Source: an uncultured Deinococcales bacterium (lineage in GTDB: Bacteria > Deinococcota > Deinococci > Deinococcales > JAAFIG01). Taken from it: DNA of 64,000 nt. Positions 1 through 64,000 of the stretch are shown here, one piece after another (position 1 is the first letter of the stretch; each line of letters begins with the position of its first letter). The stretch lies in the NCBI GenBank assembly GCA_964247135.1, contig CAXTTL010000001.1, positions 37,887-101,886 of the forward strand, read 5' to 3'. Both the position numbers and the translations under genes were made by a program. The notes under the pieces are model-generated. The model saw only the letters and a program-made list of their open reading frames with translations, made no database searches and had not been told where the DNA came from.

Positions 1-1102
1 AAACCGCCAGCGTCGGCATAAAGCTTCACTGCGCCTTCTGTGCCAAGATACTCGAGGAACTTGCCCGCCGCGTCTTTCTTGGTGCTGGCTTTGTTCAACC
101 CGATGCCGAGGCTGTGGACATGGGTTTTATGTCCTTTGGCTCCGGCTGGCATTGGCGCAAGGGCAACCTTGTCAAACACCAGCGGTGATTTTTCCTTGTC
201 CGAAAGCTCGTTGAAGGCGGCGCTCCATTGAAGCATCACCGCCACCTGACCGGTGCGGAAGGCTTCGTTCGCCTCGGCGTACTCGTAATTGGTTGCGCCT
301 GGTGGCACGGCTTTGTTCTGAGCAATCGTGGTGTAAACCGCCAGCCCTTTACGCGCCGCGTTGGAATTGATGGTCGGTTTGCCTTGGGCGTTAAACAAAT
401 CGCCACCATAACTGACCAGGGTGCTTTGCCAGATCATGATGTTAAAGAGCAAATTTTTCATCTGCAATGCCGCGCCGTAAGTGGTTGGCGAATCTGGATT
501 GAGCGATTTGGTGAAAAACAATGACACGGCAATAAAATCGTCCCAAGTCCAGTTCTCTGGGTCTTTGGGTTTCATGGTCTTGCCAAGGATGTTTTTTGAA
601 ATCTCGCCGTAACGTTTTTGCCAAGCCGCATCGGTCAAGAGTTTCTGCGTCAAGTCCTTGCGATAGTAGGTAAAATGATTGCTGACATCGGTCGGCACAC
701 CGTACTGTTTGCCGCCAAAATTTAAGGAGCTGACCGCCGAGGGCAAGAATCCCGCAATCGCGGTTTTGTTCAAATAACCGTCAACCGGTGCAAGATAGGG
801 CGCGTAGCGACCCAGCGTGTAGGTCGTGATCAAGCCCAGATCAAACTCGCTCGAGCCTGCCGCCAAATCCGTCTCTTCTTTCTCAAAATAACCTTGCCTC
901 GAAAAGAGAATCTGTTTGACACTGACCCCGTCTTTTGTGCCCGCGCCCTTGTTGTACCCATCCAGGACTTTCTGCATGGCTTCACTTTCAGGACCGGGCT
1001 AGACAATAAGGTGACCTCGGTTGGGCTTTGTGCCCTCGAGAAGCCAATGGCAAGCATGAGACCAATGGCGACAGATACGCCTGCAACAAGCTGTTTCCTC
1101 AT
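1..1102 (-). pseudogene. Sugar-type ABC extracellular solute-binding protein (family 1); 3' end off-window; apparent 1-nt frameshift between signal peptide and mature domain
   Basis: The minus-strand frame is open from ~998 to the window edge and reads like a family-1 SBP (PGPESEAMQKVLDGYNKGAG...GKQYGVPTDVSNHFTYYRKD...VMLQWSAAFNEL...GIGLNKASTKKDAAGKFLEYLG). A signal-peptide N-terminus (MRKQLVAGVSVAIGLMLAIGFSRAQSPTEVTLLS) with a GGAGGAG RBS starts at 1102 but lies in another frame. A TAG (plus-strand cta 999-1001) closes the mature-domain frame just upstream of PGPESEA. Confidence 0.55.
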
Positions 1103-1442
1103 CTTTACTCCTCCTTGTCCAGACCGGTCTAACCGGATTGCTGGTGTCAGAAATTGCATCGCGCACAAGGGAATGATCCCCAATGCCAGAGGGTTGCTTG
1201 GTTTGGAAAGTTCAATGGCTGTGACGTGTCAAAAAGTCAGTCGAATAAAGACACTGCGGCAAGAAGTTGACTATCTAACACATATTAACATGTTTTAACA
1301 CGAAGAGCGCAATGCTGACCATTGAGCTGGGATTTTGTCATGACTTGAATCCAACAAATTCCAGTGCCTCCCCACATGACTCGAGAAACGCAATACACTC
1401 AAATCCGCAACATCAATAAAAGTCGGCAACCATCGCAAGCCA

Positions 1443-2516
1443 TCAGCTTGGCTCGAGCGCAACATATTCGGTATCGTACTTGAAGTATGCAGGTCCAACC
1501 AACTCGAGTCCGGCTGGACTGCGCCACTGTGGGTCGCAAGGCATTCCAATGACCGCCACGCGAAAACCGTAACGCAAGACTTCGGTGGTGATCGGTTCGC
1601 CCGTGTCAAGGTCGAGCATGGCGATCAGATCGGGGGTGCTGGCAACCGCTTGACCGCCCTGTTCGGCGAGCAAGAATTCGTTTTGAAAAAAAACTTTCAG
1701 GCTTTGACCCGCATTCGCATCAAACCCCATCAAGCTGGCTTCACCTCGAGCAAAACCGCCCTCGGTGCGGCGCAAGACATCGCCGACCTTGCCATGAAAC
1801 AAACGTGTGCCGTGCGTCACCTCGAGCACCGCCTGAACGGGATCGTGGCGTTTGGCTCGAGCCTCAAAAATCGCTTGACCGATGCGTTCGATCAAACTGA
1901 GCGTGCCGTGAATCGTGGCGCGTTTGACCTGAGCGCCAGTCATTGGATAGAGCACCACGGTGGCGCCGCCGCCCATGTCCACCACCACCGAACGGGCAAA
2001 ACGTTCTGTCCATTTGTTGTCAATGGTGTTGACCACCAGACTGTTGCCTTTTTCGTCTGCCATGACCATCGGGCTGGCTTGAATGCCGTGCAATGTGGGT
2101 AAAACCATTTGAAGTTCTGGGAAAGCGCGTCCCATCGCGTCGCAATCCACCAAGGGCAAACCCAGAATCGAGGCGACACTGAACGGAATTGTGGAGTTGA
2201 GTCCACCCGCCTCAATGCACATCACGGCTCGAGCGGACTTGCCAAGGTACGCCTCGAGCGCCCTGAACGCCAAGATCGGCTCGTCGCCTTTGGGCAGTTT
2301 TTCGACGATCACCGTCGGTGCGCCCATCATGGCAACGGGCACGACCAGATCATCATCCTCGAGTTCGCTGACTTCAATCAGTTTGACCGCCCCATGACGC
2401 TCGAGGTTGCTTTGCGCCCAGACCTTGCCGACATAAGGATCGCCGCCGCCGCCCGTGCCGAGAACCGCGCCACCCAAAGCGATGGCTTCCATGTGATAGG
2501 CTTGAATCAAGCGCAT
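1443..2516 (-). CDS. DUF917 family protein (hydantoinase-associated)
   Basis: Track ORF 1443..2552. I moved the start to ATG 2516 (MRLIQAYHMEAIALGG...), which has a GAGGGGGA RBS and sits 1 nt after the upstream stop. The motifs GTGGGGDPY, CIEAGGLNS and DCDAMGRAFPE match my memory of DUF917, which typically partners hydantoinase-like genes. Not searched. Confidence 0.7.
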   Translation of the reverse strand: MRLIQAYHMEAIALGGAVLGTGGGGDPYVGKVWAQSNLERHGAVKLIEVSELEDDDLVVPVAMMGAPTVIVEKLPKGDEPILAFRALEAYLGKSARAVMCIEAGGLNSTIPFSVASILGLPLVDCDAMGRAFPELQMVLPTLHGIQASPMVMADEKGNSLVVNTIDNKWTERFARSVVVDMGGGATVVLYPMTGAQVKRATIHGTLSLIERIGQAIFEARAKRHDPVQAVLEVTHGTRLFHGKVGDVLRRTEGGFARGEASLMGFDANAGQSLKVFFQNEFLLAEQGGQAVASTPDLIAMLDLDTGEPITTEVLRYGFRVAVIGMPCDPQWRSPAGLELVGPAYFKYDTEYVALEPS

Positions 2517-2517
2517 T

Positions 2518-4056
2518 TCAAATCCCCCTCTTGAGGCTCTCGAGGTCGCCAACGACCTTGACGCGAATGCGGGTGGCGTTGCCGGGCAGGTAACTCAAGG
2601 GCACGTCTTCGATCTCGACGACCTCGAGCGAATCAGGTTTTGCCCCCGCAGCGACCGCCCGTTTCTTGGCTTCAATGGTGGCTTCCTCAAGCGCCGCCTC
2701 GCGGCTGATCTGCTCGAACAAATAGACTTTCTCGAGTTCGCCACTGACTTGTGCAATGGCAGCCCCAACCGCGTTGGCAGCCGCAAAATGATTTGGGCGG
2801 ATGGTCTCGAGGTCGCCCACTTTGCCGCGCACCAGTACCACGCCACCACCGACCAAAATCACTGGAATTGGGACGGCGGTCAAACGCACGCGGTCTACGG
2901 CGGCAAGAATTTTTGTTTGGATGGCGCTAACGGTGGCTTCGACCATGCTCGGCTCGAGCGTTGAAACCTTGCTCGAGTCGCCAATCTGCGCCAGTCCTGC
3001 CGCCACCGCAATGTCGGTGGCAGTCAGGGTTTGACCGCCGAACACCAAGGCTTGTTGCTCGAGTTGATAACCGACACTTTGCGGTCCGATTTCTGTGCCT
3101 TTGATAAGCGAGCCGCCCCCCAAACCGATGCTGTAAACATCGGGCATTCTGAAATTCGTGCGAACCCCGCCAACCTCGACCGCGACACCCGCCTGACGTG
3201 GGAAGCCTTGCACCAAAGCGCCAACGTCGGTGGTTGTGCCGCCAATGTCCACCACCACCGCTTCTTTGAGTTTGGATAAAAACGCCGCGCCGCGCATCGA
3301 GTTGGTTGGTCCGCTGGCAACCGTCAAAATCGGAAAGTTCTCGGCTCGAGCCGCAGGCATCAATGTGCCGTCGTTTTGGGTCAGAAAGAACGGGGCATCA
3401 ATGCCAGCTTGCTCGAGTGCATCGGCAAAAGCCTGCGCGATTTTCTTGCCCAAAGGTTGCAGCGCCGCATTCAAGATCGTGGCGTTTTCACGCTCGAGAA
3501 ACCCCACACGCCCGATAGTGTGTGACAAGGTGATTTTGGCATTGGAAACATGCTCGGCAATGATCTTGCCCGCTTGTTCCTCGAGGTCGTAATTGATGGG
3601 CGAGAATACCGAGGTGATCGCCACGCTGCTCAAACCCCTGGCGTTGATCTCCTGGGCGATGCTCGAGATTTCGTTTGGGTCAAAAATCGAAATTGGGCGA
3701 CCATCGAACTCGTTGCCGCCTTTGGCAAAAAACATGTGCTCGCCAATGCAAGCCTTTAAATCTTCAGACCAGGCGGTCATCGGCGGAATCGCCAAAGTCG
3801 CAGGTGCGCCAAGACGAATGATGGCGACCTGAGCCAGCTCGCGGCGTTGCACGATGGCATTGGTAAAATGCGTCGTGCCGATCATCACGGCATCCACGGC
3901 AGGCTTTGCGCCCTCGAACAAACTTCGCAGCGCCTCGAGCACCCCCGAGGTCACGTCCTGGGTGGTGGGGGTTTTGATGGTGCGGATGACATCAAAACCA
4001 TCCAGCAGCGCGGCATCGGTGTTGGTTCCGCCAACGTCTATCCCGACTCGAATCAT
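2518..4056 (-). CDS. Hydantoinase/oxoprolinase-family protein (HyuA-like, ASKHA fold), short form
   Basis: 512-aa ORF. The N-terminus MIRVGIDVGGTNTDAALL and a second phosphate loop VVVDIGGTTTDVG are typical of hydantoinase A/oxoprolinase-type ATPases. It is adjacent to and coupled with the DUF917 gene. Confidence 0.8.
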   Translation of the reverse strand: MIRVGIDVGGTNTDAALLDGFDVIRTIKTPTTQDVTSGVLEALRSLFEGAKPAVDAVMIGTTHFTNAIVQRRELAQVAIIRLGAPATLAIPPMTAWSEDLKACIGEHMFFAKGGNEFDGRPISIFDPNEISSIAQEINARGLSSVAITSVFSPINYDLEEQAGKIIAEHVSNAKITLSHTIGRVGFLERENATILNAALQPLGKKIAQAFADALEQAGIDAPFFLTQNDGTLMPAARAENFPILTVASGPTNSMRGAAFLSKLKEAVVVDIGGTTTDVGALVQGFPRQAGVAVEVGGVRTNFRMPDVYSIGLGGGSLIKGTEIGPQSVGYQLEQQALVFGGQTLTATDIAVAAGLAQIGDSSKVSTLEPSMVEATVSAIQTKILAAVDRVRLTAVPIPVILVGGGVVLVRGKVGDLETIRPNHFAAANAVGAAIAQVSGELEKVYLFEQISREAALEEATIEAKKRAVAAGAKPDSLEVVEIEDVPLSYLPGNATRIRVKVVGDLESLKRGI

Positions 4057-4217
4057 GATGCTCCCTTCTGGGGTGAGGCACAGATTAAATGAGGCTCGAG
4101 CTTATCAAACAGCAAAATCAAATCCGTTTGAGACCAATTCAAAACCATTGACAGATCAAATTTTCTTCACTATTGTTAACAAAATTAGATGGCAATAACA
4201 AGACCCCAGAGGCGAAC

Positions 4218-4754
4218 ATGGATGTCGGAAAAGCGATTCGAGCCAGGCGCAGACAGCTCGATTTAACCTTGGCTCAACTCTCGACGCGCTCTGGCTTGTC
4301 CTCGGCGTTCCTGTCTCAAGTCGAACGCAACTTGGCGGGGCTTTCGGTGACATCGCTCAAACAAATCGCCCAAGGCTTGGAAGTCAGCATGAGTTACTTT
4401 CTGGCAATCGAAGAAGCCGACGAACCCGTGCATTCGATTCACGCGCCACACTTTTTTTCGATTAATGGCTCAAACCTGCGTTACGCAAGGCTTGGTTCGA
4501 CCACCAACGACCGCGAACTCGAGCCGCTGTTCGTGGTCTTGCCACCCAAATATGCTTCCGAAGCCTTTCACCATGCGGGCGAAGAATTTGTGTTTGTGAT
4601 CAAAGGTCAGATTACCGTGCAGGTCGGCAAGAAAAAACACCATCTCAAAGCTGGCGACACCGTGCATTACAAATCTGGCATTCGTCATTTGTGGCGCAAC
4701 GACAGCAACGAAGAGGTTCAGGTTTTAACGGTCAACACCCCGCCATTGTTTTAA
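4218..4754 (+). CDS. XRE-family HTH transcriptional regulator with C-terminal cupin domain
   Basis: The HTH is LTLAQLSTRSGLSSAFLSQVERN and the cupin is GEEFVFVIKGQITVQVGKKKHHLKAGDTVHYKSGIRHLWRN. I preferred the ATG at 4218 (MDVGKAIRARR) over the track start 4173. The gene is divergent from the HyuA-like/DUF917 operon. Confidence 0.85.
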   Translation: MDVGKAIRARRRQLDLTLAQLSTRSGLSSAFLSQVERNLAGLSVTSLKQIAQGLEVSMSYFLAIEEADEPVHSIHAPHFFSINGSNLRYARLGSTTNDRELEPLFVVLPPKYASEAFHHAGEEFVFVIKGQITVQVGKKKHHLKAGDTVHYKSGIRHLWRNDSNEEVQVLTVNTPPLF

Positions 4755-4766
4755 ACCCCAGGAGGT

Positions 4767-5156
4767 TTGAATGACACAACACTTGGTGAAACCGTGAAAG
4801 TCTTCCCACTCGAGTACCCCGAACGCCCACTGCAAGTCCTCGATCAACTCGAGCTGCCCGCCGAAGCCAGCGCTTCGTTAAGAATGGGCACCGCCAAAGT
4901 TCAAAAAGGCGATTGGATACCCCCAGCGGGATACTCGAGCCACGAGCAACACGAGGTTTCGGTGCTGTTAAAAGGACAACTCGAGATTGAGGTGGGCGGG
5001 CAAACCACCGCGCTCAAACACGGCGAGGTCGTGATGATTCCCGCCCTTGAAGCCCACCGTACCTACGCACTCGAGGATTCAGAACTGATCTGGTTCTGGT
5101 TTGGAAATGCCACAACAAGCGCCCCTGGCGCGAGCGGTAAAGGAGGAGCGGTATGA
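4767..5156 (+). CDS. Cupin domain protein (start uncertain)
   Basis: 129-aa ORF with a two-motif cupin pattern (HEQHEVSVLLKGQLEIEVGG ... GEVVMIPALEAHRTYAL). The track start is a TTG only 1-2 nt after AGGAGG, so the real start may be the internal GTG (~4794). Its stop overlaps the start of the next gene (ATGA). Confidence 0.55.
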   Translation: MNDTTLGETVKVFPLEYPERPLQVLDQLELPAEASASLRMGTAKVQKGDWIPPAGYSSHEQHEVSVLLKGQLEIEVGGQTTALKHGEVVMIPALEAHRTYALEDSELIWFWFGNATTSAPGASGKGGAV

Positions 5157-6766
5157 AGAAAGAACTGGTGGTTCTCGGGCTGTGCATGGTGGCGGCAGTC
5201 GGTATGGCGTTGACGCAATCTCTTGGACAAGGACAGCGCATCCTGCGGCTTGACAATGCCGCACCCGCCGAACTCGATCCGCACATTGGCAATGATTACT
5301 CGGCATCGGTGCTGGCGTACAACGTTTACGATACACTGGTGATGCCAGACCCAGACAACGGGGTGAAACCATCCGTTGCCACCAAATGGACCGTTTCCAA
5401 CGGCGGCAAACGTTTTACCTTCACCTTGCGTCCGAACGTTAAATTTCACGATGGCAGCACACTCGAGGCAAGCGATGTGGTTTTCAGTTACGAGCGCACC
5501 AAAGCCGTGGATCAGGGGTTTTCTTACCTCTTCCAAGGCTGGGTGACTGGCGTCAAAGCCGTCGGCAAAACGGTGGTGCAATTTGACCTTTCAGGCACGT
5601 ATGCACCCTTCCTCTCGACCTTGGTGCGCCTGCCCATCGTCAACAAAGACCTGGTGTTAAAGAACAAAAAAGACGGCAAGTTCGGCGCGAACGGCGATTA
5701 CGGACAAGCCTTCCTCTCGGGCAACGACGCGGGTTCGGGCGCATACCGCGTGACCCAACACAACCCGCAAACCCTGACGGTACTCGAGAAATTCAAAGAT
5801 TACTTCCTGGGCTTTAATCCCAAAGCCCCAGATGTCGTGCGCCAACTGTACAGCGTCGAATCTGCCACGATGCGCACCCTGATGGCACGCAAAGAACACG
5901 AAATCTCGAGCCAATGGCATCCGCAAGAAGTCCTCAAAGCCCTGGCAACTCAACCAGGCATCAGCCTGATTACCGAAGGCAGCGGCGGGTCGCTCATGTT
6001 TAAACTCAACACCCAACGCGCCCCAACCGACGACGTGAACTTCCGCAAAGCGATGGCGCTCGCCTTTGATTACAGCGAACTGGTTTCCGCATTAAAAGTC
6101 ACCGATAAAATCTCGGCAGGTGTTGCCGCTCGAGGTCCTATCGCCGCGAGCTTGCCAGGGTTTGATAAAGCTTTGGTCGCGCCAAAACGCAACTTGGATG
6201 CCGCCAAAGCCGCCCTCGCCAAATCCAAGTACGCCAACCAACTCGACAAAGCCGTGGTGGACATGGTTTGGGTCGCCGAAGCGCCGTTTGAAGAAAAAAT
6301 GGCGCTGTTGATGCAACAAAACCTGGGCGAGATTGGCATCAAAGTCAACCTCACCAAACTCCCCTGGGCAACACTCACCGAACGCTTCGTCAAAGCCGAC
6401 CAAACACCCAACACCTACCCGCTCTTCACCGGGCTTTCCTACCCAGACCCAGACGGACTCTTGTACGTGATGTACTCGAGCAAAGCCGCAGGCACCTTCT
6501 GGAGTTCGAGTTGGGTCAAAGATGCCGAGATCGACAAAGCCCTCGATGATGCCCGCCGGCTCAGCGACGTGAGCAAACGCATGGACTTGTACAAAAAAGT
6601 TCAAGAACGCCTGGTTGGAATGCAATCGGATATTTACGCCTACGACAACTTGGCGGTGTTCGCCAAACAAGATTACGTCAAAGTCCCGACGCTCGAGAAT
6701 GAAGGGCAGAGCGTGTCCACGATTGGGGCGAACTGGTTGTTCAGGTTGATTGAAGTCAACAACTGA
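5153..6766 (+). CDS. ABC transporter substrate-binding protein, family 5 (peptide/nickel/opine type)
   Basis: 537 aa with a signal peptide (MKKELVVLGLCMVAAVGMALTQS) and an AAGGAGGAG RBS. The family-5 SBP-like sequence reads LDPHIGNDYSASVLAYNVYDTLV ... FHDGSTLEASDVVFSYER. It is followed by Dpp-type permease and ATPase genes. Confidence 0.9.
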   Translation: MKKELVVLGLCMVAAVGMALTQSLGQGQRILRLDNAAPAELDPHIGNDYSASVLAYNVYDTLVMPDPDNGVKPSVATKWTVSNGGKRFTFTLRPNVKFHDGSTLEASDVVFSYERTKAVDQGFSYLFQGWVTGVKAVGKTVVQFDLSGTYAPFLSTLVRLPIVNKDLVLKNKKDGKFGANGDYGQAFLSGNDAGSGAYRVTQHNPQTLTVLEKFKDYFLGFNPKAPDVVRQLYSVESATMRTLMARKEHEISSQWHPQEVLKALATQPGISLITEGSGGSLMFKLNTQRAPTDDVNFRKAMALAFDYSELVSALKVTDKISAGVAARGPIAASLPGFDKALVAPKRNLDAAKAALAKSKYANQLDKAVVDMVWVAEAPFEEKMALLMQQNLGEIGIKVNLTKLPWATLTERFVKADQTPNTYPLFTGLSYPDPDGLLYVMYSSKAAGTFWSSSWVKDAEIDKALDDARRLSDVSKRMDLYKKVQERLVGMQSDIYAYDNLAVFAKQDYVKVPTLENEGQSVSTIGANWLFRLIEVNN

Positions 6767-6812
6767 TTGAAATGGGGTGGCTCGAGGGATTGGTTTCTCG
6801 AGCCACCTTTTG

Positions 6813-6876
6813 GGGGGCGGTGCGGTTATTGGTGGTGGGATTGTTGGCGGTGCGCTCGAGAGCGCACCCTACGGGG
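6813..6876. repeat. Left arm of RAYT unit (G/T-rich tract + REP hairpin GGTGCGCTCGAGAGCGCACC + CCTACGGGG tail)
   Basis: Read directly from the sequence. The 9-bp inverted repeat GGTGCGCTC/GAGCGCACC is centred at ~6859. The same hairpin recurs at 7743-7762, 9848-9867, 10094-10113, 13296-13315 and 13484-13503. Confidence 0.85.
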
Positions 6877-7116
6877 TGGGCGGGGCATGTGAATGGTTTT
6901 AATGTGGTTCATTCTGAATTAATAAATTGATCCCCAAAAAATACGCATACGACTCGAGATTCATGTATTCCTCGAGATTACGTCCGAGAGATTACAAAAT
7001 CACAGTTGAAGGTTTTGCTCGACTTGTAAATTTATGGATTTTCAAATTGATAAAAAAATCTATTTCGTTTCGTTCGCATTCATTCACAACGTATTACACA
7101 CATCGACCAGTCACCT

Positions 7117-7656
7117 TCATCCCACAAATTTCTCTTCAACCCTCAAACCCTCGCGCCAATCTTCTGGGTATACCCCTTGCGAAACACACCGATGAAACGT
7201 ACTCCACTCCCAATCCCTGACCTTCGAGACCAACCCATGCTTGACCGGGTTGTAATGAACGTAATCCATGCAGCGTTCAAAATTGGCATCATCCCGAACT
7301 TGATGCTCCCAAAACCGCCTCTGCCAAATGCTCGTTTCGCGTCGCGCCACCCGAGACGCGCTCAACCTCGAGTCGTTCCTGATTTCTGGCAGGGCTTTGC
7401 TGCACAATTGCTTGATCATGTTCCAACGCAAGCTGAAATTGGTGTCATCTTCGGGCAGTGTCCAAATGGTGTGCAGGTGGTCGGGCAGCAACACCCAAGC
7501 ATCAATCGTGAACGGATGATGGCTTCGGGTGCGCGTCACCGCCTCGCGCAGCGCTGCCCGAAATGCAGGCTCGAGCAAAATGGGTTGCCGTTGATGCGTG
7601 ACCACCGTGAAAAAAAACGTGCCGCCAGGGGCATTGGCGCGGCGATAATTCGGCAT
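7117..7656 (-). CDS. rayT: REP-associated tyrosine transposase (RAYT; Y1 HUH transposase, IS200/IS605 superfamily)
   Basis: The N-terminus [23 protein letters not shown] is RAYT-typical. The HUH motif is [10 protein letters not shown] and the catalytic Tyr block is [13 protein letters not shown] preferred the start at 7656 over the track start 7707. REP hairpins flank the gene in inverted orientation. Confidence 0.85.
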
Positions 7657-7733
7657 GGCTCGAGTATAAGATTTTGGGATGTTCGTGCATGTGATATATC
7701 CGCACACCGATTTCCCGCAATTTTATCCCGATC

Positions 7734-7798
7734 CCCCGTAGGGTGCGCTCTCGAGCGCACCGCCAACAATCCCACCACCAATAACCACACCGCCCCCC
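7734..7798. repeat. Right arm of RAYT unit (inverted copy of 6813-6876)
   Basis: The sequence is CCCCGTAGGGTGCGCTCTCGAGCGCACCGCCAACAATCCCACCACCAATAACCACACCGCCCCCC. It is the reverse complement of the left arm except for one position (A vs G in ...AATAACC[A/G]CACC...). Confidence 0.85.
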
Positions 7799-7892
7799 AT
7801 CTCGAGCACACCCCCAAAACATCCAATTTCCACATGTTCCCACGCTTTCAAGACCGTCAATCACCCGCATCCCCCATTCAGGTACACCCCTG

Positions 7893-8924
7893 ATGCTCAC
7901 CTTCCTGACCTACATCGCCCGTCGCCTGTTCTCCTCCATTGTCGTGCTCATCGGCGTTTCAATCCTGGTTTTCGTGATCGCTCGAGTCATCCCTGGCGAC
8001 CCCGCCCGCATCGCCCTTGGTCCAATGGCATCACAAGAATCCATCAAGAATTTGCGCTTCGAGTTGTACCTGGATCGCCCTTTGCCTTTGCAGTACCTCG
8101 AGTTTGTGCGGCGTTTACTCAAGGGTGATCTTGGCACGAGTTTGTACACGCGGCGCGCGGTCACGGCAGACCTCGAGCAGTTTTTCCCAGCCACCCTCGA
8201 GTTGGTACTGGCGAGTGGTTTGTTGATGGTGGTGTTTGGTTTGCCTTTGGGGGTGCTGGCGGCGCGGTATCGCAATCGCTTGCCCGACAACGTGGCTCGA
8301 GTCTTTGCGATTCTTGGGGTGGTCACCCCCAATTTTGTCTGGGCAATTTTTTTGATCTTGATGTTTGCCTATTGGGTGGCGATTCTGCCCGTGGCTGGGC
8401 AACAATCGGATACGTTTTTGCTGCCGAAGAAAATCACAGGTTTTTTGATGCTTGATTCGATTTTGACGGGGCAATGGGCAATGTTCTGGGATGCGCTGAG
8501 GCATTTGATCTTGCCTGCGGCGGCGCTGGCGTTTGCGGGTTTGGGGCAGACCGCACGCCTGACTCGAGCGAACATGCTCGATTCTTACGGCAAGCCTTAC
8601 ATCGAGATGGCTCGAGCTTTTGGCATCAGTGAACTCGAGATTGCCACCAAGTACGCGCTGCGTCCCGCACTCATTCCGACGCTGACCATTTTAGGGCTTG
8701 ATTTTGCCGCGATGCTTGGCGGGGCGTTTTTGGTCGAGGCGGTCTTCAACTGGCCCGGCATGGCGCGTTACGCCGTGCAAGCGATTTTGCACAAAGACCT
8801 GAACGCGATTGTCGGCACGACCCTGGTGATCGCGGTGTTCTTTTTACTGGTCAACATCGTGGTGGATTTGATCGTTGGTTACGTCAACCCTCGGATTCGT
8901 TTTCACGAGGAGGCTCGAGGATGA
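7893..8924 (+). CDS. ABC transporter permease (DppB/OppB-like)
   Basis: 343 aa and multi-TM. The N-terminus MLTFLTYIARRLFSSIVVLIGVSILVFVIARVIPGDP is typical of DppB-type permeases. Its stop overlaps the next permease start (8921). Confidence 0.9.
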   Translation: MLTFLTYIARRLFSSIVVLIGVSILVFVIARVIPGDPARIALGPMASQESIKNLRFELYLDRPLPLQYLEFVRRLLKGDLGTSLYTRRAVTADLEQFFPATLELVLASGLLMVVFGLPLGVLAARYRNRLPDNVARVFAILGVVTPNFVWAIFLILMFAYWVAILPVAGQQSDTFLLPKKITGFLMLDSILTGQWAMFWDALRHLILPAAALAFAGLGQTARLTRANMLDSYGKPYIEMARAFGISELEIATKYALRPALIPTLTILGLDFAAMLGGAFLVEAVFNWPGMARYAVQAILHKDLNAIVGTTLVIAVFFLLVNIVVDLIVGYVNPRIRFHEEARG

Positions 8925-9781
8925 CACTTTCTCCTGCCAGAATCTTTCGCTCGAGGTCTTGGTATCGCTTTTCACAAAACCCGCTGTCAGTGATCGGTTT
9001 GGGCATTGTGGTGTTGGTGGTGCTGCTGGCGATTCTTGCGCCGATCATCACGCCCTACCCGAAGCACGCGGGGCAGTTTGTGAATTTCAGTGCGGGCACT
9101 GCCGCACCGACATGGCAGTATTTGTTTGGCACGGACACCATTGGGCGTGATGTTTTGACGCGCATCATTTTTGGCTTGCGGGTCTCGCTCGCGCTTGGCG
9201 TGGTGGTCTTGGCATTGGCTGTGCCCATTGGTGTGATTCTGGGTTTGATGGCGGGTTATTTTGGGCGGCACGTCGAACTGGTCATCATGCGAATCACCGA
9301 TGTTTTTCTGGCATTGCCACCTTTGGTGCTGGCGTTGGCGGTCTTGGGGTTTCTGGAGCCAAATTTGTTTAACGCCATGATGGCGGTGACCGTGATGTGG
9401 TGGCCATGGTACACGCGATTGGTCTACAACCTCTCCCGTTCAATCCGCACCGAGGGTTTTGTCACCGCCAGCGAGGTGATGGGCGCCTCGAGATTCCATA
9501 TTTTGTTCCGCGAGATTCTGCCGAATTGCCTGCCCTCGATCTTGACCAAAATGACGCTCGACATGGGCTTTGTGATTCTGATTGGCGCGAGTTTGTCGTT
9601 TCTGGGCTTGGGTGTCCAACCGCCCACCCCAGACCTCGGTTCGATGGTCGCCGACGGCGCAAAATACCTGCCCGATGCCTGGTGGATTTCGGTCTTTCCT
9701 GGACTGGCGGTCTTGTTCTGCGTGCTCGGTTTTAATTTGCTCGGTGATGGCTTGCGCGATCTTTTGGACGTGGAGGTATGA
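8921..9781 (+). CDS. ABC transporter permease (DppC/OppC-like)
   Basis: 286 aa. The sequence reads LFGTDTIGRDVLTRIIFGLRVSL ... LPNCLPSILTKMTLDMGFVILIGASLSFLGLGVQPPTPDLG, with an EAA-type loop region. Confidence 0.9.
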   Translation: MTLSPARIFRSRSWYRFSQNPLSVIGLGIVVLVVLLAILAPIITPYPKHAGQFVNFSAGTAAPTWQYLFGTDTIGRDVLTRIIFGLRVSLALGVVVLALAVPIGVILGLMAGYFGRHVELVIMRITDVFLALPPLVLALAVLGFLEPNLFNAMMAVTVMWWPWYTRLVYNLSRSIRTEGFVTASEVMGASRFHILFREILPNCLPSILTKMTLDMGFVILIGASLSFLGLGVQPPTPDLGSMVADGAKYLPDAWWISVFPGLAVLFCVLGFNLLGDGLRDLLDVEV

Positions 9782-9835
9782 ACCACGATTTTGCCGTGTT
9801 GTGGGTTGTACAGTGCAATGTATGGCGAACCGTTC

Positions 9836-10122: not shown

Positions 10123-10130
10123 AATTATTT

Positions 10131-12082: not shown

Positions 12083-12083
12083 G

Positions 12084-13253: not shown

Positions 13254-13287
13254 TGTTTCAAACCACCCCCGCGATGTTCCAAACAAC

Positions 13288-13507: not shown

Positions 13508-13562
13508 TACAATTTTTTGCAATTAAAATTTCGCATCAATTTAATACCATCAGGAGGAATCC

Positions 13563-17341: not shown

Positions 17342-17492
17342 GGCTCGAGCATACAATCCCAACACCTCGAGACACCGTTGTACGTTTCGTGTTTTGAATT
17401 TGCCAGCAGCCGCCAATCCATTTCGCCAAAAAGCACCCTCGCCACTCGAGTTTTGCGTGGGTGCGGCTGGTTTTTTCTCGAACTGACTTGAT

Positions 17493-58239: not shown

Positions 58240-58265
58240 GCGCCGTATAACGGTGCTTTTTTATT
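58240..58265 (+). terminator. Terminator-like hairpin + T-tract inside the nrdJ 5' leader (possible attenuator)
   Basis: The hairpin GCGCCGT-ATA-ACGGTGC has a 7-bp stem with one G-U pair and is followed by TTTTTTATT. It lies 66 nt upstream of ATG 58331, and there is no upstream plus-strand gene for it to terminate. Confidence 0.35.
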
Positions 58266-58330
58266 GTCGCGCCATCAACACCAAACGATTCAGACGCCAT
58301 GATCGGCGTGCCAACCACAAGGGGAGAACC

Positions 58331-61300
58331 ATGACACTATCGCTCGAACCACAAACCGCCTACCACTTCGACGACCACGCGCAATCAATGGCAAAACGCC
58401 AATACATGTTCGAGTCGGACAAAGACGTGTTCGGCATGTTCCGCCGCGTTGCCGACTGGGTGGCGGGCGGCGAAAAATCGAGCGAATTGCGCGCAAAATG
58501 GGGCGCACAATTTTACGACCTGATGGCGAGCAAGCGCTTCTGCCCAGGCGGACGCGTGCTGGCGGGCGCCGGCACACAACACGGCAATGTCTTAAACTGC
58601 TTTGTCCAGGGCGCAACCGATCACGACCCCTCGAGCTTTGAGGGCGTGATGGAGGTTGCCAAAAAACTTGCGCTGGTCACCAAAGTCGGCGGCGGCAACG
58701 GCGTGAACCTCGACGTCTATGCCCCTCGAGCCGCCAGCAGTCGCCGTGACGCAGGGGTGCGCGGTTGGGCGTACATGAGCGCCAGCCACCTCGATGTCGA
58801 AGATTTTATCAAAGGCTTGATGCGCCCACCGACCCAACCCGACGGGGCGAAACAACCGACCACCGTGCGCAACTGGACCAAAGCGATTTACGGCGTGGTC
58901 GGTCCAGCCATCTCGAGCCTGGCGCGTCAATACGGCGTGACGATTGTGCCAGAATTGCCTGAAGGCGTCGAGGTGATCCGCGACGACATGGGCGGCATCA
59001 TCGACGCCGCCAGAATTGTTGCCGAACAAGCCAAAATGAACCTCGAGCCTCGGATTGATCTGACGGGCTTGCGAGCCGAAGGCGCAGAAATCAAAGGTTC
59101 TGGCGGAAGCTCGAGCGGACCGGTGTCGTTCCTGTTCGAGATTTTTGACAACTTCCTCGAGTGGGCGAACTTGGGCGCGGAAACCTCGGGACCCGTGAAC
59201 ACTTTGCGTTACTGTTATGCACCAGTATTGCGTGTGGTACGTCAGGGTGGTTGCCTCCATCCCGACACGCTGGTTCACACCTCGAGGGGTACATTGCGCC
59301 TTCGTGAACTGGTGGGCGGCTACCAATTCGGGCATCAACAACATCAACTTCAAGTTGCCACCGACCAAGGCTGGAAAGACAGCTTGGAAGGCTTTAACAA
59401 CGGCATTGCCAACACCCTCAAAATTACTCTCGAGAATGGTTTCGAGCTTCAAGGCACACCCAACCACAAACTCAAAGTCATGCGCGAAAACGGCAAACGC
59501 GAATGGCTGCGCTTTGACGAACTCCAAGCAAACGATTTTGTCATCCAAGTGCTCGACCAACACACGGGCAGCCCTGTGCAACTCGAGCCACCCAGCGAAC
59601 AGCATTTCAATGCCACGCCGATCACCACAACCGACACCCTAACCGAAGACCTTGCATTTTTCTTGGGCTACTTCTGGGGCGATGGTTTTGTCAGCACAGG
59701 CGGACGCATTGGTTTGTGCGCCTCGCACGATAGTGTCATGATGCAACGCGCCCCAGCAATGTTTCAGGAATTGTTCGGTTTGAATGTCAGTTTGCAACAA
59801 AAACCCAACGACAAAAGCGCTGTGTTTGTCGTCAAAAGCGCGGTACTGACCAACTGGTTAAGTCAAAACGGCTTGTTGAAAACCAAAGCTGCCGACCTCG
59901 AGTTACCCCGTGCGATACGTCAAGCGCCACGTCATGTTTTGGCTGCATTCTTGCGCGGTTTGTTCGAGGCTGACGGCGGAGTGAGCGAACACTACCCATA
60001 CCTTTCGAGCGCCTCCAAGCAACTTGTGCAAGATGTTGCGGTCATGCTCGGCGGATTGGGCATTCCGACCCGCATTGCGACTTACGCCCCAAGGGAAGAC
60101 CGTTACTCTCAAAGCGAACACTACCGTTTGCGGGTCGAAACTAGCCTCGGCTTGAAGAACTTCCTCGAGCGCGTCAACTGTATTGAAGGCTCGAGGTTTG
60201 AAACATTGAGAACTTTTACACCCGATGACACTCGAGCCTCGAGTTGGGAATTGCCACACGCCTCGGCACTGCTCGAGCCTGTGTTCAACAACCTTCCAGC
60301 AGGTCGAAAAAATTATCCTTCTGAATTTACCCAGACCCGCAAAACCCTCTCGAGGTACATTCGCGGTGAGCGCTCACTGACCATGACAGGCATGGCTCGT
60401 CTTGCGCAAAATGCCCAGATTGCCGAAATGCTGCCCGAAGTCAGCTTTGATGAATACTTTGTCCCCGTCAAATCTATTGAAGTGGGCGGACGCATTTTGA
60501 CGCTCGATATCAGCGTAAACGAAAACCACACTTACCTGGCAAACGGGATGGTCAGTCACAACACGCGTCGCGGCGCTGGGATGGCAACCATCAGCATCGA
60601 TCACGCCGACGTTCTGGATTTTCTGACCGCCAAAGACCTTGACCGCGAAAGCGCTGAGGGCGACATTTCAACCTTCAACATCTCGATTCTGGCAACCGAG
60701 CGCTTCATTCAAACCCTCGAGAAAGACGGACTCTGGAACATCACACCGCTTGAGGTCAGCGCCAAATACCACATCGTTAAACTCGAGGGCGAATACAAGG
60801 GCAAGATTCCAACGCTCGAAACTCGGGTGTTGGACGGCGCGAAAGGCGTGCCATTGTACGCGGGAGGTGTTCCCGCCCGTTGGTTGTGGCGCGAGATTGC
60901 CACGCACGCCTGGAGTACGGGCGAACCAGGCTTGATTTTCAATGACCGCATCAACGAATTCAGTGCGCTGAAAAACCTTGGTGAACGTTATCAAATTAAG
61001 AGTACAAATCCTTGCGTGACTGCTGACACTTGGGTGATGACTCGTACAGGTGCGCAACAAGTTCAAAACCTTATTGGCAAGGACTTTTGTGCAGTTGTGG
61101 ACGGAGAAATCTACCAAGCCGCAGGCGGATTCTGGTTGACTGGTGTTAAACCAGTCTTAAAACTTCGCACCAAGCGGGGTTACGAATTGCGTTTGACGGG
61201 CAATCATCAACTGTTACAAGTCACAAAACAAACTCGAGACAACCAAGAAACAATGTGGACAGAAACGCAAAATTTGAAGATCGGTGACAGCATAAAACTC

Positions 61301-63706
61301 AACGATCATCGCAATTTGGCATTCTGGAGCGGACGTGGCAATCAGGCTGAAGGGTGGTTGCTTGGCAACTTGATCGGTGATGGTACGTTCTTAATAGACA
61401 AAGCCCGTCCAATGGCAGCACTGGATTACTGGGGTGATGCTCGAGTCGAGAATCTAGCTCGAGCCAAGAAAATGCTCCAACGCTTGTCCGCAACAGCAAA
61501 ACTTTGGCACAGCGAAAATGAAACCCACAATCGCAGCCGTCTGAGTAGCGAGGCACTTGCAACCCTAGCCGAAAAATACGGGGTGAAACACGGTCACAAG
61601 ACCATCACTGATGAGATCGAACAAGGCAATACCCGTTTTTATCAAGGCTTTTTGCAAGGATTGTTTGATGCCGACGGCAGTGTTCAAGGCACACAGCAAA
61701 AAGGGGTCAGTGTGCGTCTGGCACAAAGTAACCTCGAGTTGTTGCGCCGTGTGCAGCGCATGTTGTCACGTTTGGGTATTCTCTCGAGTATCTTTGAGAA
61801 CCGTCGTAATCAACACAACAAATTCATGCCAGATGGACGCGGTGGACAAAAAGAGTACACCGTACAAGCCCAGCACGAATTGATTATCACTGGCAGCAAC
61901 TTACAAGTATTCCTCGAGCGTATAGGGTTTAGCGAAACAGCCAAACAAACCACATTGACCAAGCTTCTCGAGTCTTATCAACGCCGTTTAAACCGCGAGC
62001 GTTTCGCTGACCAGGTTGTGAGTATCGAACTTGACGGCGAAGAGGCTGTATACGACGTTACAGTGGATAGCATCCATGCTTTTGATGCAAATTGTATCTT
62101 GGCTCACAATTGTGGCGAGATTCCGTTGACGGTAGGCGAACCGTGCGATTTAGGCGCAATCAACCTCGCCGCATACGTCGAAAAAGGCACATTCAACTTC
62201 AAAAAATTCCGTTCCGACGTGCGCGACTGCACCCGCTTCCTCGACGACGTGCTCGAGGTCAACAAGTTCGCCCTCGAGGACAACCGCATTGCCAGCCAGG
62301 ACTTGCGCCGTCTTGGGTTGGGCGTGATGGGACTTGCCGATGCCTTGATTTTGATGGGCTTGCGTTACGACCGCCAGGACGGGCGCGATATGATCGACCA
62401 GATCATGAGCACCATGCGCGAGGAAGCCGTGCGTGAATCCGAAAACCTGGGTCTCGAGCGTGGTGTCTATCCAGTCTTCGAGCGGTATCAAGACAAAATT
62501 CCCCACGCGCCGCGCCGCAACGTTGCGGTCTTGACGGTCGCCCCAACAGGCACGACCAGCATGTTGATGGGCGTCTCGAGCGGCATCGAACCCGTGTTTT
62601 CGCCGTTCATTTGGCGCAAGATCGGCAGCGATTACAAAGCCTTGATCGCGCCACTGTTCCAAGAGTTGCTCGAGCAATTCCCAGCACACCCGCAGTACGC
62701 CAGGGACGGACGCTGGGATTGGGATAAAGTCACCGAAGCCCTTGGCGGCAATCACGGCTCTTGCGTCGGACTGGATTTTGTACCGCAAGTGGTGCAAGAC
62801 GTGTTCGTTTGCGCCCACGACATCGCGCCGCTCGACCATGTGCGGATGCAAGGCACGGTGCAAAAAGCCTTTGACCGCGAAGGATTCGCCGCGAACAGCC
62901 TCTCGAAAACCATCAATCTGCCCAACAGTGCCACCGTCGAAGAAATCGAGGCGGCGTATCTCGAGGCGTACAAAACGGGTTGCAAAGGGATTACGGTCTA
63001 CCGCGACGGCAGCCGTCAATTTCAGGTGTTAAGCGTCAGCAAAGACGAGAAAAAAGAGGAAGTTAAAGAGACCAAGCTCGAGTTGAAACCAGAATTGACC
63101 GAATCGAGCGACAACCACACCTGGCAAGCCTCGCCCAAATTTCAACCAGGCAAACCAATTCTCGAGCGACCAACGCGGTTGACGGGCGTGACCGACATGG
63201 TGAAACTGACCGACTTGGGCGCGGGGTCAAAACGCACGTTCTTGATTACCACCAACACGCTCGAGGGCAAACCGATGGAAGTCGTGGTCGTCTCGGGACG
63301 TGCAGGAGACGAGGCGAACGCGGACTCCGAAGCTTTGGGGCGCGTGGTTAGCATTGCGCTGCAATACGGTGTGCCAGCCGAAGCGATTCAGAAGACTTTG
63401 CGCGGCATCAACGGCGGGTTGTACGGGAGTTACAACGGGCGCTTGGTCGCCAGCAAAGCAGACCTGATTGCGGTGGCGCTCGAGAGTACCAGCAGCACGG
63501 GCGGCGTGAAGCCAGCCGAGCAACCACTCCTCTACCCGATTCTGGAAGGTGCAGCACCAGAAAACTCGAGCGACACGCCACTTTTCAGGAATGTGAAAGC
63601 GGTGGAAATGAAAGGCGAGAAATGCCCGAGTTGCTCGAGTCCGAACTTGGTGCGGGAAGAGGGATGCTTGAAATGCCAGAGTTGCGGATACAGCAAGTGC
63701 GGGTGA
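58331..63706 (+). CDS. nrdJ: Class II (adenosylcobalamin-dependent) ribonucleotide reductase NrdJ, interrupted by two inteins
   Basis: The start is ATG 58331 (AAGGGGAGA RBS). The extein blocks are AKRQYMFE...FCPGGRVLAGAG, RQGG|TRRGAGM, STNP|CGEIPL (active-site NPCGE), VAPTGTTS, a TSCPD-like region (MEVVVVSGRAGDEANADSEALGRVVSIALQYGVPAEAI) and a C-terminal Cys4 finger (CPSCSS...CLKCQSCG). The precursor is 1791 aa and the spliced product is 988 aa. Confidence 0.9.
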   Translation: MTLSLEPQTAYHFDDHAQSMAKRQYMFESDKDVFGMFRRVADWVAGGEKSSELRAKWGAQFYDLMASKRFCPGGRVLAGAGTQHGNVLNCFVQGATDHDPSSFEGVMEVAKKLALVTKVGGGNGVNLDVYAPRAASSRRDAGVRGWAYMSASHLDVEDFIKGLMRPPTQPDGAKQPTTVRNWTKAIYGVVGPAISSLARQYGVTIVPELPEGVEVIRDDMGGIIDAARIVAEQAKMNLEPRIDLTGLRAEGAEIKGSGGSSSGPVSFLFEIFDNFLEWANLGAETSGPVNTLRYCYAPVLRVVRQGGCLHPDTLVHTSRGTLRLRELVGGYQFGHQQHQLQVATDQGWKDSLEGFNNGIANTLKITLENGFELQGTPNHKLKVMRENGKREWLRFDELQANDFVIQVLDQHTGSPVQLEPPSEQHFNATPITTTDTLTEDLAFFLGYFWGDGFVSTGGRIGLCASHDSVMMQRAPAMFQELFGLNVSLQQKPNDKSAVFVVKSAVLTNWLSQNGLLKTKAADLELPRAIRQAPRHVLAAFLRGLFEADGGVSEHYPYLSSASKQLVQDVAVMLGGLGIPTRIATYAPREDRYSQSEHYRLRVETSLGLKNFLERVNCIEGSRFETLRTFTPDDTRASSWELPHASALLEPVFNNLPAGRKNYPSEFTQTRKTLSRYIRGERSLTMTGMARLAQNAQIAEMLPEVSFDEYFVPVKSIEVGGRILTLDISVNENHTYLANGMVSHNTRRGAGMATISIDHADVLDFLTAKDLDRESAEGDISTFNISILATERFIQTLEKDGLWNITPLEVSAKYHIVKLEGEYKGKIPTLETRVLDGAKGVPLYAGGVPARWLWREIATHAWSTGEPGLIFNDRINEFSALKNLGERYQIKSTNPCVTADTWVMTRTGAQQVQNLIGKDFCAVVDGEIYQAAGGFWLTGVKPVLKLRTKRGYELRLTGNHQLLQVTKQTRDNQETMWTETQNLKIGDSIKLNDHRNLAFWSGRGNQAEGWLLGNLIGDGTFLIDKARPMAALDYWGDARVENLARAKKMLQRLSATAKLWHSENETHNRSRLSSEALATLAEKYGVKHGHKTITDEIEQGNTRFYQGFLQGLFDADGSVQGTQQKGVSVRLAQSNLELLRRVQRMLSRLGILSSIFENRRNQHNKFMPDGRGGQKEYTVQAQHELIITGSNLQVFLERIGFSETAKQTTLTKLLESYQRRLNRERFADQVVSIELDGEEAVYDVTVDSIHAFDANCILAHNCGEIPLTVGEPCDLGAINLAAYVEKGTFNFKKFRSDVRDCTRFLDDVLEVNKFALEDNRIASQDLRRLGLGVMGLADALILMGLRYDRQDGRDMIDQIMSTMREEAVRESENLGLERGVYPVFERYQDKIPHAPRRNVAVLTVAPTGTTSMLMGVSSGIEPVFSPFIWRKIGSDYKALIAPLFQELLEQFPAHPQYARDGRWDWDKVTEALGGNHGSCVGLDFVPQVVQDVFVCAHDIAPLDHVRMQGTVQKAFDREGFAANSLSKTINLPNSATVEEIEAAYLEAYKTGCKGITVYRDGSRQFQVLSVSKDEKKEEVKETKLELKPELTESSDNHTWQASPKFQPGKPILERPTRLTGVTDMVKLTDLGAGSKRTFLITTNTLEGKPMEVVVVSGRAGDEANADSEALGRVVSIALQYGVPAEAIQKTLRGINGGLYGSYNGRLVASKADLIAVALESTSSTGGVKPAEQPLLYPILEGAAPENSSDTPLFRNVKAVEMKGEKCPSCSSPNLVREEGCLKCQSCGYSKCG
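59252..60562 (+). mobile_element. NrdJ intein 1 (437 aa, LAGLIDADG homing-endonuclease type), inserted in the GG/TRRGA motif
   Basis: Block A is CLHPDTLVHT. Block B is ELQGTPNHKLKV. The LAGLIDADG motifs are LAFFLGYFWGDGFV and LAAFLRGLFEADGGV. Blocks F/G are ILTLDISVNENHTYLANGMVSHN, followed by Thr at +1. Confidence 0.85.
61013..62110 (+). mobile_element. NrdJ intein 2 (366 aa, LAGLIDADG type), inserted immediately before the catalytic Cys of NPCGE
   Basis: Block A is CVTADTWVMT. Block B is ELRLTGNHQLLQV. The LAGLIDADG motifs are WLLGNLIGDGTF and FLQGLFDADGSV. Blocks F/G are AVYDVTVDSIHAFDANCILAHN, followed by Cys at +1 (CGEIPL). Confidence 0.85.
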
Positions 63707-63740
63707 AATGAACATGCCCGCTCGAGTATCCCGATAATTT

Positions 63741-64000
63741 ATGGCAAAAGACTTTTTCAGTGAAGCCGTCAAAAACGCTCTTCGCAAAGATGGTTGGGAA
63801 ATCACCAACGACCCACTCGCGCTCGAGTACGGCGATGCAGCATTTGAAATTGATCTTGGCGCAGAACGAATCGTCGGCGCAGAACGAAGTGGTAAACGAA
63901 TTGCCGTAGAAATCAAAACCTTTATTCGCAAATCTGCATCACACGAATTCAGTGGATCGCTGGGTCAATACCTCAGTTACCGTCACGCATTGACGCAAAT
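63741..64000 (+). CDS. xisH: XisH family protein (5' partial view; runs off window)
   Basis: MAKDFFSEAVKNALRKDGWEITNDPLALEYGDAAFEIDLGAERIVGAERSGKRIAVEIKTFIRKSASHEF matches the XisH pattern as I remember it (MAKDxFHxxVKxALxKDGWxITxDPL...DLGAE...AVEVKSF). The frame is open to the window end. Confidence 0.7.
   Translation, partial: MAKDFFSEAVKNALRKDGWEITNDPLALEYGDAAFEIDLGAERIVGAERSGKRIAVEIKTFIRKSASHEFSGSLGQYLSYRHALTQ

Follow-up and report, generated by a model that had tools for sequence, protein, structure and literature searches.

The palindromic hexamer CTCGAG occurs 385 times (6.0/kb; mean spacing 166 bp) in a 64,000-bp stretch of contig CAXTTL010000001.1 from an uncultured Deinococcales bacterium (hereafter the window; 54.3% GC), and is best read as a genuine motif of the highly iterated palindrome (HIP) type, a class exemplified by HIP1 of cyanobacteria, belonging to an uncultivated clade of Deinococcota and maintained by a directional process. 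The enrichment is independent of sequence context, the sites are conserved and turn over between relatives, the proteins encoded bear the mark of the hexamer, and abundance of this extreme kind is confined to the one clade. By analogy with cyanobacteria and from what is known of cultivated relatives, we infer that the motif is probably tied to an orphan adenine methyltransferase and, with it, to machinery that would read the methylated site.

Abundance and Sequence Context of CTCGAG

The motif is dispersed over the whole window (positions 1–64000, no strand assigned), every 2-kb bin holding between 6 and 19 copies. A first reading made from the sequence only, without database searches (the sequence-only reading), had counted 20 sites in positions 1–3063, among them those at 51, 850 and 1035, and had extrapolated several hundred for the remainder; the count of 20 is exact and the density does continue across the window. 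CTCGAG is the most frequent hexamer, the next unrelated hexamer having 81 copies (4.8 times fewer), and the other top-ranking hexamers mostly overlap CTCGAG as one- or two-base shifts (TCGAGC, GCTCGA and the like). The observed-to-expected ratio of occurrences (O/E) is 21.2 at order 0, 33 at order 1, 14 at order 2 and 3.4 at order 3 of a Markov model. The sequence-only reading had proposed judging the enrichment by the maximal-order model, in which a value close to 1 would count against it; computed at order 4 this value is 1.23, nominally near 1, but the yardstick is flawed and the value uninformative rather than a refutation, because CTCGAG itself supplies most of its own sub-words (385 of 659 TCGA, 385 of 457 CTCGA and 385 of 453 TCGAG, or about 85% of the pentamers). 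When all sixteen NTCGAN words are tabulated, the C...G cell holds 385 and each of the other fifteen between 0 and 35, with a flank odds ratio of 10.5 (P = 6e-37), while TCGA outside CTCGAG is found at expectation (O/E 1.1).

Palindromes of the restriction type are usually avoided, as had been remarked at the outset, and this is strikingly true of nearly every other palindrome in the window. The 64 palindromic hexamers have a median O/E of 0.11 as against 0.81 for non-palindromes, with 41 of them below 0.2 and 18 absent; likewise GGCC occurs 7 times where 347 are expected, CTAG 12 times where 246 are expected, and CCGG has an O/E of 0.22. A general enrichment of palindromes is thereby ruled out.

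The repeated unit is the bare hexamer with a mild gCTCGAGc preference, as had been proposed. Over five positions on each side the flanks are near background composition, only G at −1 (37%) and C at +1 (42%) being mildly favoured, and the palindrome extends by at least 1 bp beyond the hexamer at 81 sites against 97 expected, i.e., without excess. A dispersed repeat family of the repetitive extragenic palindromic (REP) or miniature inverted-repeat transposable element type was rejected as the source of the sites, the flanks being near background and the one REP-like hairpin found holding approximately 4 of the 385. This REP-like family, (C)GTAGGGTGCGCTCTCGAGCGCACCGCC, is intergenic and lies in both orientations at approximately 6846–6868, 7739–7765, 9845–9870, 10091–10113, 13293–13318 and 13484–13503. 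The hexamer had been noticed in the loops of these hairpins, and the hairpin sequence is present in several copies: GGGTGCGCTCTCGAGCGCACC at 6846–6868 on the minus strand has the motif at about 6849, further CTCGAG-carrying copies start at about 7742 (plus), 10094 (minus) and 13296 (plus), and two copies, at about 9848 and 13484, have CTCAAG in place of CTCGAG. A scan of Joint Genome Institute (JGI) metagenome contigs gave no match to the 21-nt REP-like core. An intergenic cluster of five sites, reported between 6780 and 6975, was located at 6781, 6797, 6855, 6953 and 6971 (cluster 6781–6976, no strand assigned), with two of the sites forming the stem of a terminator-like hairpin after a substrate-binding-protein gene and one lying in the REP-like hairpin.

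The gaps between sites have a coefficient of variation of 0.94 and close pairs are too few, with 5 gaps below 12 bp against 24.6 ± 4.7 simulated, 29 below 30 bp against 61.7 ± 6.6 and 84 below 60 bp against 115 ± 7.6. Not one of the 5000 simulations, in which sites were placed uniformly and coding constraints ignored, was as low as observed. There is therefore a short-range repulsion between neighbouring CTCGAG sites. Repulsion below approximately 60 bp is what would be expected of a protein footprint, and an array of sites bound by a plentiful dimeric protein acting in nucleoid structure, segregation or condensation, maintained by selection with no part for methylation, would also be in keeping with the symmetry of the hexamer, which suits a dimer, with the uniform density over 2-kb bins and with site conservation in excess of codon conservation (see below). 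However, we know of no candidate protein, and the known nucleoid proteins are degenerate in their preference and do not hold a dipeptide to one codon pair in 82% of its occurrences (see below). Extrapolated to a 3-Mb genome the array would comprise about 20,000 sites, with very weak selection on each, such that a drive is easier to envisage, and we judge a protein array of this kind improbable.

Reading Frames, Codon Choice and Protein Sequence

CTCGAG is present at 5.8/kb in the 38 confident genes, at 7.0/kb in short, doubtful open reading frames (ORFs) and at 7.1/kb in DNA without an ORF, in keeping with the initial observation that it occurs in all three frames and in non-coding DNA. Within the confident genes the CTC-GAG frame was observed 176 times against 29.9 ± 4.8 in synonymous shuffles that keep each protein and its codon usage, nCT-CGA-G 58 times against 2.8 ± 1.8, and nnC-TCG-AGn 72 times against 6.2 ± 2.4. 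Stratification by codon phase, which the sequence-only reading had put forward, thus reveals an excess in every phase (6–21 times the shuffles) and not just in Leu-Glu, and codon usage fails to explain it.

The hexamer encodes 176 of 214 Leu-Glu dipeptides (82%), though Leu is written CTC in 25% of cases and Glu is written GAG in 50%. Before Glu, only 15 of the 214 Leu codons are TTG or CTG, which overall account for 58% of Leu codons. The peptides that could synonymously accommodate the motif in the other frames are filled to a similar degree, CTCGAG being used in 51% of [SPTA]-R-[VADEG] and in 51% of x-S-[SR] tripeptides. For the codon pair CTC-GAG the window has a ratio of 6.3, as against a median of 1.44 and a maximum of 2.47 in 71 unrelated control loci. 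The effect reaches the proteins themselves, as had been suspected: among dipeptides Leu-Glu has the largest excess (214 where 95 are expected, 2.25-fold) and Ser-Ser the next largest (1.76-fold), as the TCG-AGY frame predicts, and in hydB amino-acid replacements create sites (see below).

In many bacteria CTC-GAG is a mildly favoured pair, as the control median indicates, high-GC genomes reach an order-0 O/E for CTCGAG of 5–8, and the REP-like element carries the hexamer, all of which would favour an unremarkable origin, as a side effect of codon usage, of dipeptide composition or of repeats dispersed through the genome. The synonymous shuffles, the non-coding density and a codon-pair ratio of 6.3 against a control maximum of 2.5 rule out codon usage or dipeptide composition as the source, while the persistence of the motif at 45–57% GC, the random flanks and the few sites attributable to the REP-like element add to the case, such that a by-product origin of any of these kinds deserves next to no credence.

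The density is not the same in every class of gene. Five genes for substrate-binding proteins of ABC transporters (3–998, 5153–6766, 22364–23923, 25663–27183 and 47197–48561) together reach 2.0 sites/kb, the figure elsewhere being 6.5/kb (P = 3e-8), and permease genes are low too; the last of the five, on the minus strand, has no CTCGAG and lies within the largest gap in the window (1458 bp). The few Leu-Glu pairs of these proteins are still almost all CTCGAG, indicating that synonymous opportunities are filled everywhere while amino-acid-changing gains depend on constraint. The depletion may be an effect of expression or of constraint, like the negative correlation between HIP1 and expression reported in cyanobacteria. 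The second-largest site-free gap, at 33657–34807 (1150 bp), falls in a stretch (32.7–34.5 kb) of reduced GC whose short ORFs match no Pfam family and which is possibly foreign or non-coding DNA. In the gene for a putative endonuclease of the Uma2 family (DUF820; 31265–32380), CTCGAG encodes 2 of 7 Leu-Glu and the GC content at third codon positions (GC3) is 0.51, which suggests that the gene may have arrived more recently than its neighbours. Uma2 genes may be expanded in HIP1-bearing cyanobacteria too.

Conservation and Turnover Between Relatives

The block at 7908–17352 (plus strand) is syntenic with a contig of a Deinococcales metagenome-assembled genome (MAG), L001, at approximately 79% nucleotide identity. 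CTCGAG is kept at 39 of the 58 aligned sites (67%) as against 27.8% for all other hexamers (P = 5e-10), with 19 sites found only in the window and 17 only in L001, the other genome typically being 2–3 substitutions away. The same codons were compared inside and outside the motif, a control previously applied to HIP1 (Xu et al., 2018, PMC5861425), and were better conserved inside in each case (CTC 79 vs. 47%, GAG 76 vs. 43%, CGA 75 vs. 29%, TCG 83 vs. 57%; pooled P = 6e-7), and identity at third codon positions was 82% inside and 57% outside (P = 3e-8). As such the hexamer and its synonymous positions are far more conserved than the controls, and the proposal that the site is actively maintained is borne out.

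The manner in which sites come and go was followed in an eight-taxon codon alignment of hydB (15662–17341, plus strand; 7 sites in the window). Compared with the outgroups, the sites that the clade has in common came about through amino-acid replacements (VSL→ISR, A-[Y/S/H]-x→GSS, DE→LE and YTR→YSR). In the hydB of the ENA metagenome contig L081, alignment column 641 has undergone a four-nucleotide switch from CAGCCG to CTCGAG that leaves Asn-Ser-Arg unchanged, Ser being recoded (AGC to TCG) and Arg likewise (CGx to AGx), a change that would need either non-synonymous intermediates or one multi-base event. At another position two sub-lineages have CTCGAG 2 nt apart and in different frames, while the two apparent losses are single transitions, to TTCGAG in the window and to CTCGAA in the ENA metagenome contig L082. 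Turnover in hydB is thus directional, with gains by multi-nucleotide and by non-synonymous change and losses by single transitions.

These observations bear on very-short-patch (VSP) repair, in which a cytosine methyltransferase acting on CTCGAG and a Vsr-like endonuclease would together turn near-cognate words into CTCGAG by acting on their T:G mismatches, as Dcm and Vsr enrich CCWGG in E. coli. VSP repair is known to enrich oligonucleotides modestly, by approximately 1.5-fold and not 20-fold. CTCGAG methyltransferases making 5-methylcytosine or N4-methylcytosine occur elsewhere, in Halorubrum (PMC8112702) and Methylocystis (PMC4752239, S4 Table), but those documented in Deinococcota make N6-methyladenine (m6A), and neither a Vsr-like nor a restriction gene was found in the 64-kb window. 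The route is disfavoured chiefly because the transition neighbours that it predicts as sinks are not depleted (O/E of 1.07 for CTTGAG, 1.66 for CTCAAG, 1.81 for TTCGAG and 1.28 for CTCGAA), and gains often take 2–4 substitutions including transversions; VSP repair is accordingly a very improbable source of the enrichment.

Inteins and Mobile DNA

The gene for a class II ribonucleotide reductase, nrdJ (58253–63706, plus strand; the ORF as listed begins at an upstream GTG and the likely start is the ATG at 58331), contains 37 sites, and 21 of its 26 Leu-Glu are encoded by CTCGAG, including all the examples singled out in the sequence-only reading. Both of its inteins are of the LAGLIDADG type and contain the motif, as had been noted. 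Intein 1 (amino acids 334–770, CLHPDT...VSHN; 59252–60562, plus strand, boundaries from translation) has 10 sites (7.6/kb) and intein 2 (amino acids 921–1286, CVTADT...LAHN; 61013–62110, plus strand) has 7 (6.4/kb), and these genomic densities indicate that the inteins are long-term residents. In two relatives represented by ENA contigs (L085 and L086) nrdJ is without these inteins and is split by apparent frameshifts. Other mobile DNA is poor in sites: a 2.7-kb stretch with an IS4/5 transposase in the Trueperaceae MAG L003 has 0 CTCGAG (P = 0.009), and in L001 the density falls near a phage-type integrase. Site-poor DNA around such elements would fit a gradual accumulation of CTCGAG in resident DNA.

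Scarcity in recently acquired DNA would equally be expected of a drive like that of DNA uptake sequences, in which the competence machinery, Deinococcota being naturally transformable, prefers CTCGAG-bearing DNA, methylated or not, and recombination spreads the site-bearing alleles. The uptake signal sequences of Pasteurellaceae and the DNA uptake sequences of Neisseriaceae resemble CTCGAG in being dispersed genome-wide in all frames, in reshaping peptides, in their conservation among relatives, in being rarer in foreign DNA and in being spaced more evenly than random. Unlike the palindromic 6-mer, however, they are asymmetric 9–12-mers that reach about 1/kb, are often arranged as inverted pairs in terminators and are read by competence proteins; at 6/kb every fragment would have several sites, so that a drive through uptake should saturate at a far lower density. 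To our knowledge there is no uptake specificity in Deinococcota, and Thermus is reported to take up DNA without sequence preference. In cyanobacteria, methylated HIP1 raises natural transformation more than 100-fold in a methylation-dependent manner (2024 preprint, 10.1101/2024.09.10.611283) and HIP1 has been proposed as an uptake signal (2026 preprint, 10.64898/2026.06.24.733823). On this evidence a drive of the uptake type is unlikely.

Distribution in the Deinococcota

The HydB protein of the window is 88% identical to that of a Deinococcales MAG, 76% to that of a Trueperaceae MAG and 76% to that of a Meiothermus MAG, while the N-terminal extein of NrdJ is approximately 70% identical to its counterpart in Meiothermus, 60–77% in Deinococcus and 63% in Thermus. 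The full trait was found in five independent assemblies, namely the window, the Deinococcales MAG contig L001, the ENA metagenome contigs L081 and L082, and the Trueperaceae MAG L003 (45% GC). In each CTCGAG is the rank-1 hexamer, with an order-2 O/E of 13–14 and with 39–60% of TCGA lying within it; the codon-pair ratio is 6–9 in the window, L001, L081 and L003 (L082 being excluded for having too few Leu-Glu), and the trait holds at 45–57% GC across the clade.

The avoided palindromes are not shared in this way. Avoidance of GGCC and CCGG is restricted to the window and L081 and that of TTAA to L001 and L082, whereas CTCGAG is enriched in all. The differing avoidances imply a rapid turnover of restriction systems, and the constancy of CTCGAG enrichment across them indicates that it is older than, and independent of, present restriction pressures. 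Linkage of CTCGAG to GGCC avoidance was considered and is ruled out by the confinement of the latter to a sub-lineage.

Outside the clade the signal falls away. Meiothermus loci are intermediate and marginal, with an order-2 O/E of 3.6–5.1, a flank odds ratio of 1.3–1.6 and a codon-pair ratio of 2.6–2.9 as against the control maximum of 2.5. An A. silvanus plasmid (1.3 sites/kb; order-2 O/E 3.1) and an Oceanithermus plasmid (2.7 sites/kb; order-2 O/E 2.6) are intermediate or weak, and a T. thermophilus megaplasmid, at 0.67 sites/kb, does not have the trait. It is also absent from D. radiodurans MP1 (L090, 1–50000) and from L085 and L086, the NrdJ-syntenic relatives, all three of which have 0.14–0.16 sites/kb, an order-2 O/E of 0.5–0.7 and a flank odds ratio of 0.1–0.3. 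Sites in these last three are as few as if under XhoI-type restriction, and opposite extremes are thus met within one phylum. Extreme abundance of CTCGAG is confined to the one uncultivated clade.

The order of genes for an XRE/cupin regulator, a peptide ABC transporter, an Xaa-Pro peptidase, HydA and HydB (approximately 4173–17341) is conserved in Meiothermus contigs and in a Thermus megaplasmid, T. thermophilus pTHTHE1601 (L087, locus 9632–23260). The gene order held in common with the latter suggests that the stretch may belong to a replicon resembling a megaplasmid.

Likeness to Known Systems and the Proposed Methyltransferase Link

The closest known systems are HIP1 (GCGATCGC) and the alternate cyanobacterial HIPs GGCGCC, GCsGC, rCCGGy, GGGATCCC and TCGATCGA (PMC4390886, PMC5861425). 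Like these, CTCGAG is a short palindrome, over-represented tens of fold in coding and non-coding DNA and in all frames, with variable flanks, conserved beyond codon conservation and restricted to a clade, and the wider phylum includes orphan methyltransferases of matching specificity; the analogy drawn by the sequence-only reading holds for every feature that could be tested. Of the quasi-periodic spacing over long distances described for HIP1 (Xu et al., 2018, PMC5861425), a stretch of 64 kb can reveal no more than the shortage of close pairs given above. HIP1 proper, a cyanobacterial word that goes with GATC and CGATCG methyltransferases, can be set aside, since CGATCG occurs 0 times in the window and the organism belongs to the Deinococcota. 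The differences lie in the phylum, in the word, which is 67% GC, in a density of approximately 6000 sites/Mb against 300–2700/Mb for HIP1 and 1000–2000/Mb for most alternate HIPs, in an overt effect on the proteome (the 2.25-fold excess of Leu-Glu), and in the probable modification, which by analogy with the enzymes of relatives would be at N6 of adenine where theirs is cytosine methylation. Given that m6A is the likelier mark, the ratchet that Elhai proposed, based on mismatch repair at G-meC, could not apply as written. CTCGAG is probably an undescribed HIP variant in a new phylum, with a new word, approximately 2–6 times the density of most cyanobacterial HIPs and adenine methylation. The suspicion that it had not been described as a HIP is supported by the literature: four HIP papers (PMC4390886, PMC5861425, 10.1101/2024.09.10.611283 and 10.64898/2026.06.24.733823) mention neither CTCGAG nor Deinococcota, and full-text searches combining CTCGAG with palindrome, over-representation, Thermus or Meiothermus gave nothing relevant in the library searched.

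In cyanobacteria every alternate HIP coincides with a cognate methyltransferase, and a methyl-directed repair ratchet has been proposed (Elhai, 2015, PMC4390886). Within the Deinococcota, active Type II m6A methyltransferases of CTCGAG specificity, with no restriction partner listed, are present in three cultivated species (Blow et al., 2016, PMC4752239, S4 Table): M.Mru1279II (Mrub_2385) of Meiothermus ruber, where 99.5% of CTCGAG is methylated, M.Mch9957IV of M. chliarophilus and M.Mhy14884I (Marky_0034) of Marinithermus hydrothermalis, an Eco57I/TaqI-type protein. M. silvanus has no CTCGAG methyltransferase (PMC4752239, S4 Table), and in Nocardia an orphan enzyme of this specificity goes with motif clusters adjoining dnaA (PMC4752239). 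These orphans offer, for the same hexamer and in the same phylum, a precedent for a non-defensive epigenetic mark, but what was described is methylation and origin-proximal clusters, not genome-wide hyper-abundance (Blow et al., 2016, PMC4752239). The hexamer is also identical to the recognition sequence of XhoI/PaeR7I-type systems. Restriction targets are avoided in host genomes, as the low CTCGAG of D. radiodurans MP1, L085 and L086 would be expected to reflect, whereas in the window this target is 21-fold enriched and nearly every other 6-bp palindrome avoided.

Several points weigh against a methyltransferase-based account. No DNA methyltransferase was found by Pfam scans of about 57 ORFs of the window and 10 ORFs flanking the related loci, and when M.TaqI, whose target is TCGA and whose sequence was verified in the PDB, served as a homology query, the hits were all TaqI orthologues, from Thermus, Anaerolineae and Armatimonadota; the link therefore relies on relatives and on analogy. 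Genera that include methyltransferase-bearing species have only the marginal signal seen at Meiothermus loci, suggesting that possession of such an enzyme is probably not sufficient for hyper-abundance. We know of no MutH in Deinococcota, nor of any protein that reads hemimethylated CTCGAG. At 6/kb the density lies well above the saturation at approximately 1/kb of Elhai's mismatch-repair model (PMC4390886), and sequence data cannot separate selection on the sites from biased conversion. As such, of the directed process first proposed, the maintenance of the site and the shaping of proteins stand, while its mechanism, a methyltransferase or biased repair, is argued from relatives.

Proposed Mechanism

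The pattern demands a process that recognises the double-stranded hexamer in any context, that raises the rate of gain or lowers the rate of loss by an order of magnitude, and that saturates locally, the last of which would explain the repulsion between neighbouring sites. A DNA-level process reading duplex CTCGAG probably favours gain and opposes loss in every sequence context; most synonymous opportunities have been filled in all frames, and amino acids replaced where proteins tolerate it. The likely agent would be an orphan methyltransferase, conserved in the lineage and making CTCG(m6A)AG as in M. ruber, M. chliarophilus and Marinithermus hydrothermalis. The methylated hexamer could then serve as a dense mark of self or of the parental strand, read by the repair, recombination or DNA-uptake machinery, and sites would accumulate by biased repair or conversion, as in Elhai's ratchet model for HIPs, by selection for dense marks, or by both. 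Stated in this broad form, as a system of the HIP type coupled to an orphan methyltransferase making CTCG(m6A)AG, with accumulation by biased repair or recombination, by selection for dense marks or by both, the explanation has in our view an even chance of being right. The more specific version, that the clade independently evolved a HIP system in which biased repair or recombination writes the hexamer through the joint action of an orphan methyltransferase of adenine and machinery reading the methylated or hemimethylated site, is put forward tentatively, as a serious possibility that falls short of probable.

Significance of a HIP-Type Motif in Deinococcota

For three decades HIP1 has resisted explanation, all work on it having stayed within cyanobacteria, and the clade described here amounts to an independent natural replicate in which it can be asked what HIPs have in common, be it orphan methylation, natural competence or a bias of repair. 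The case is a challenge to models that depend on methylated cytosine, Elhai's ratchet among them, and shows how strongly a pressure at the level of DNA overrides codon choice and even amino-acid sequence. For work on this clade, CTCGAG offers a sharp compositional signature by which sequences can be binned and foreign DNA dated, and the presence of the hexamer in donor DNA, methylated or not, might affect transformation. Were the clade to have evolved a HIP system of its own, highly iterated palindromes would be a convergent outcome of orphan methylation across phyla rather than a cyanobacterial peculiarity, and the pressure behind them would be one that fixes four-nucleotide synonymous switches and doubles the frequency of a dipeptide in the proteome.

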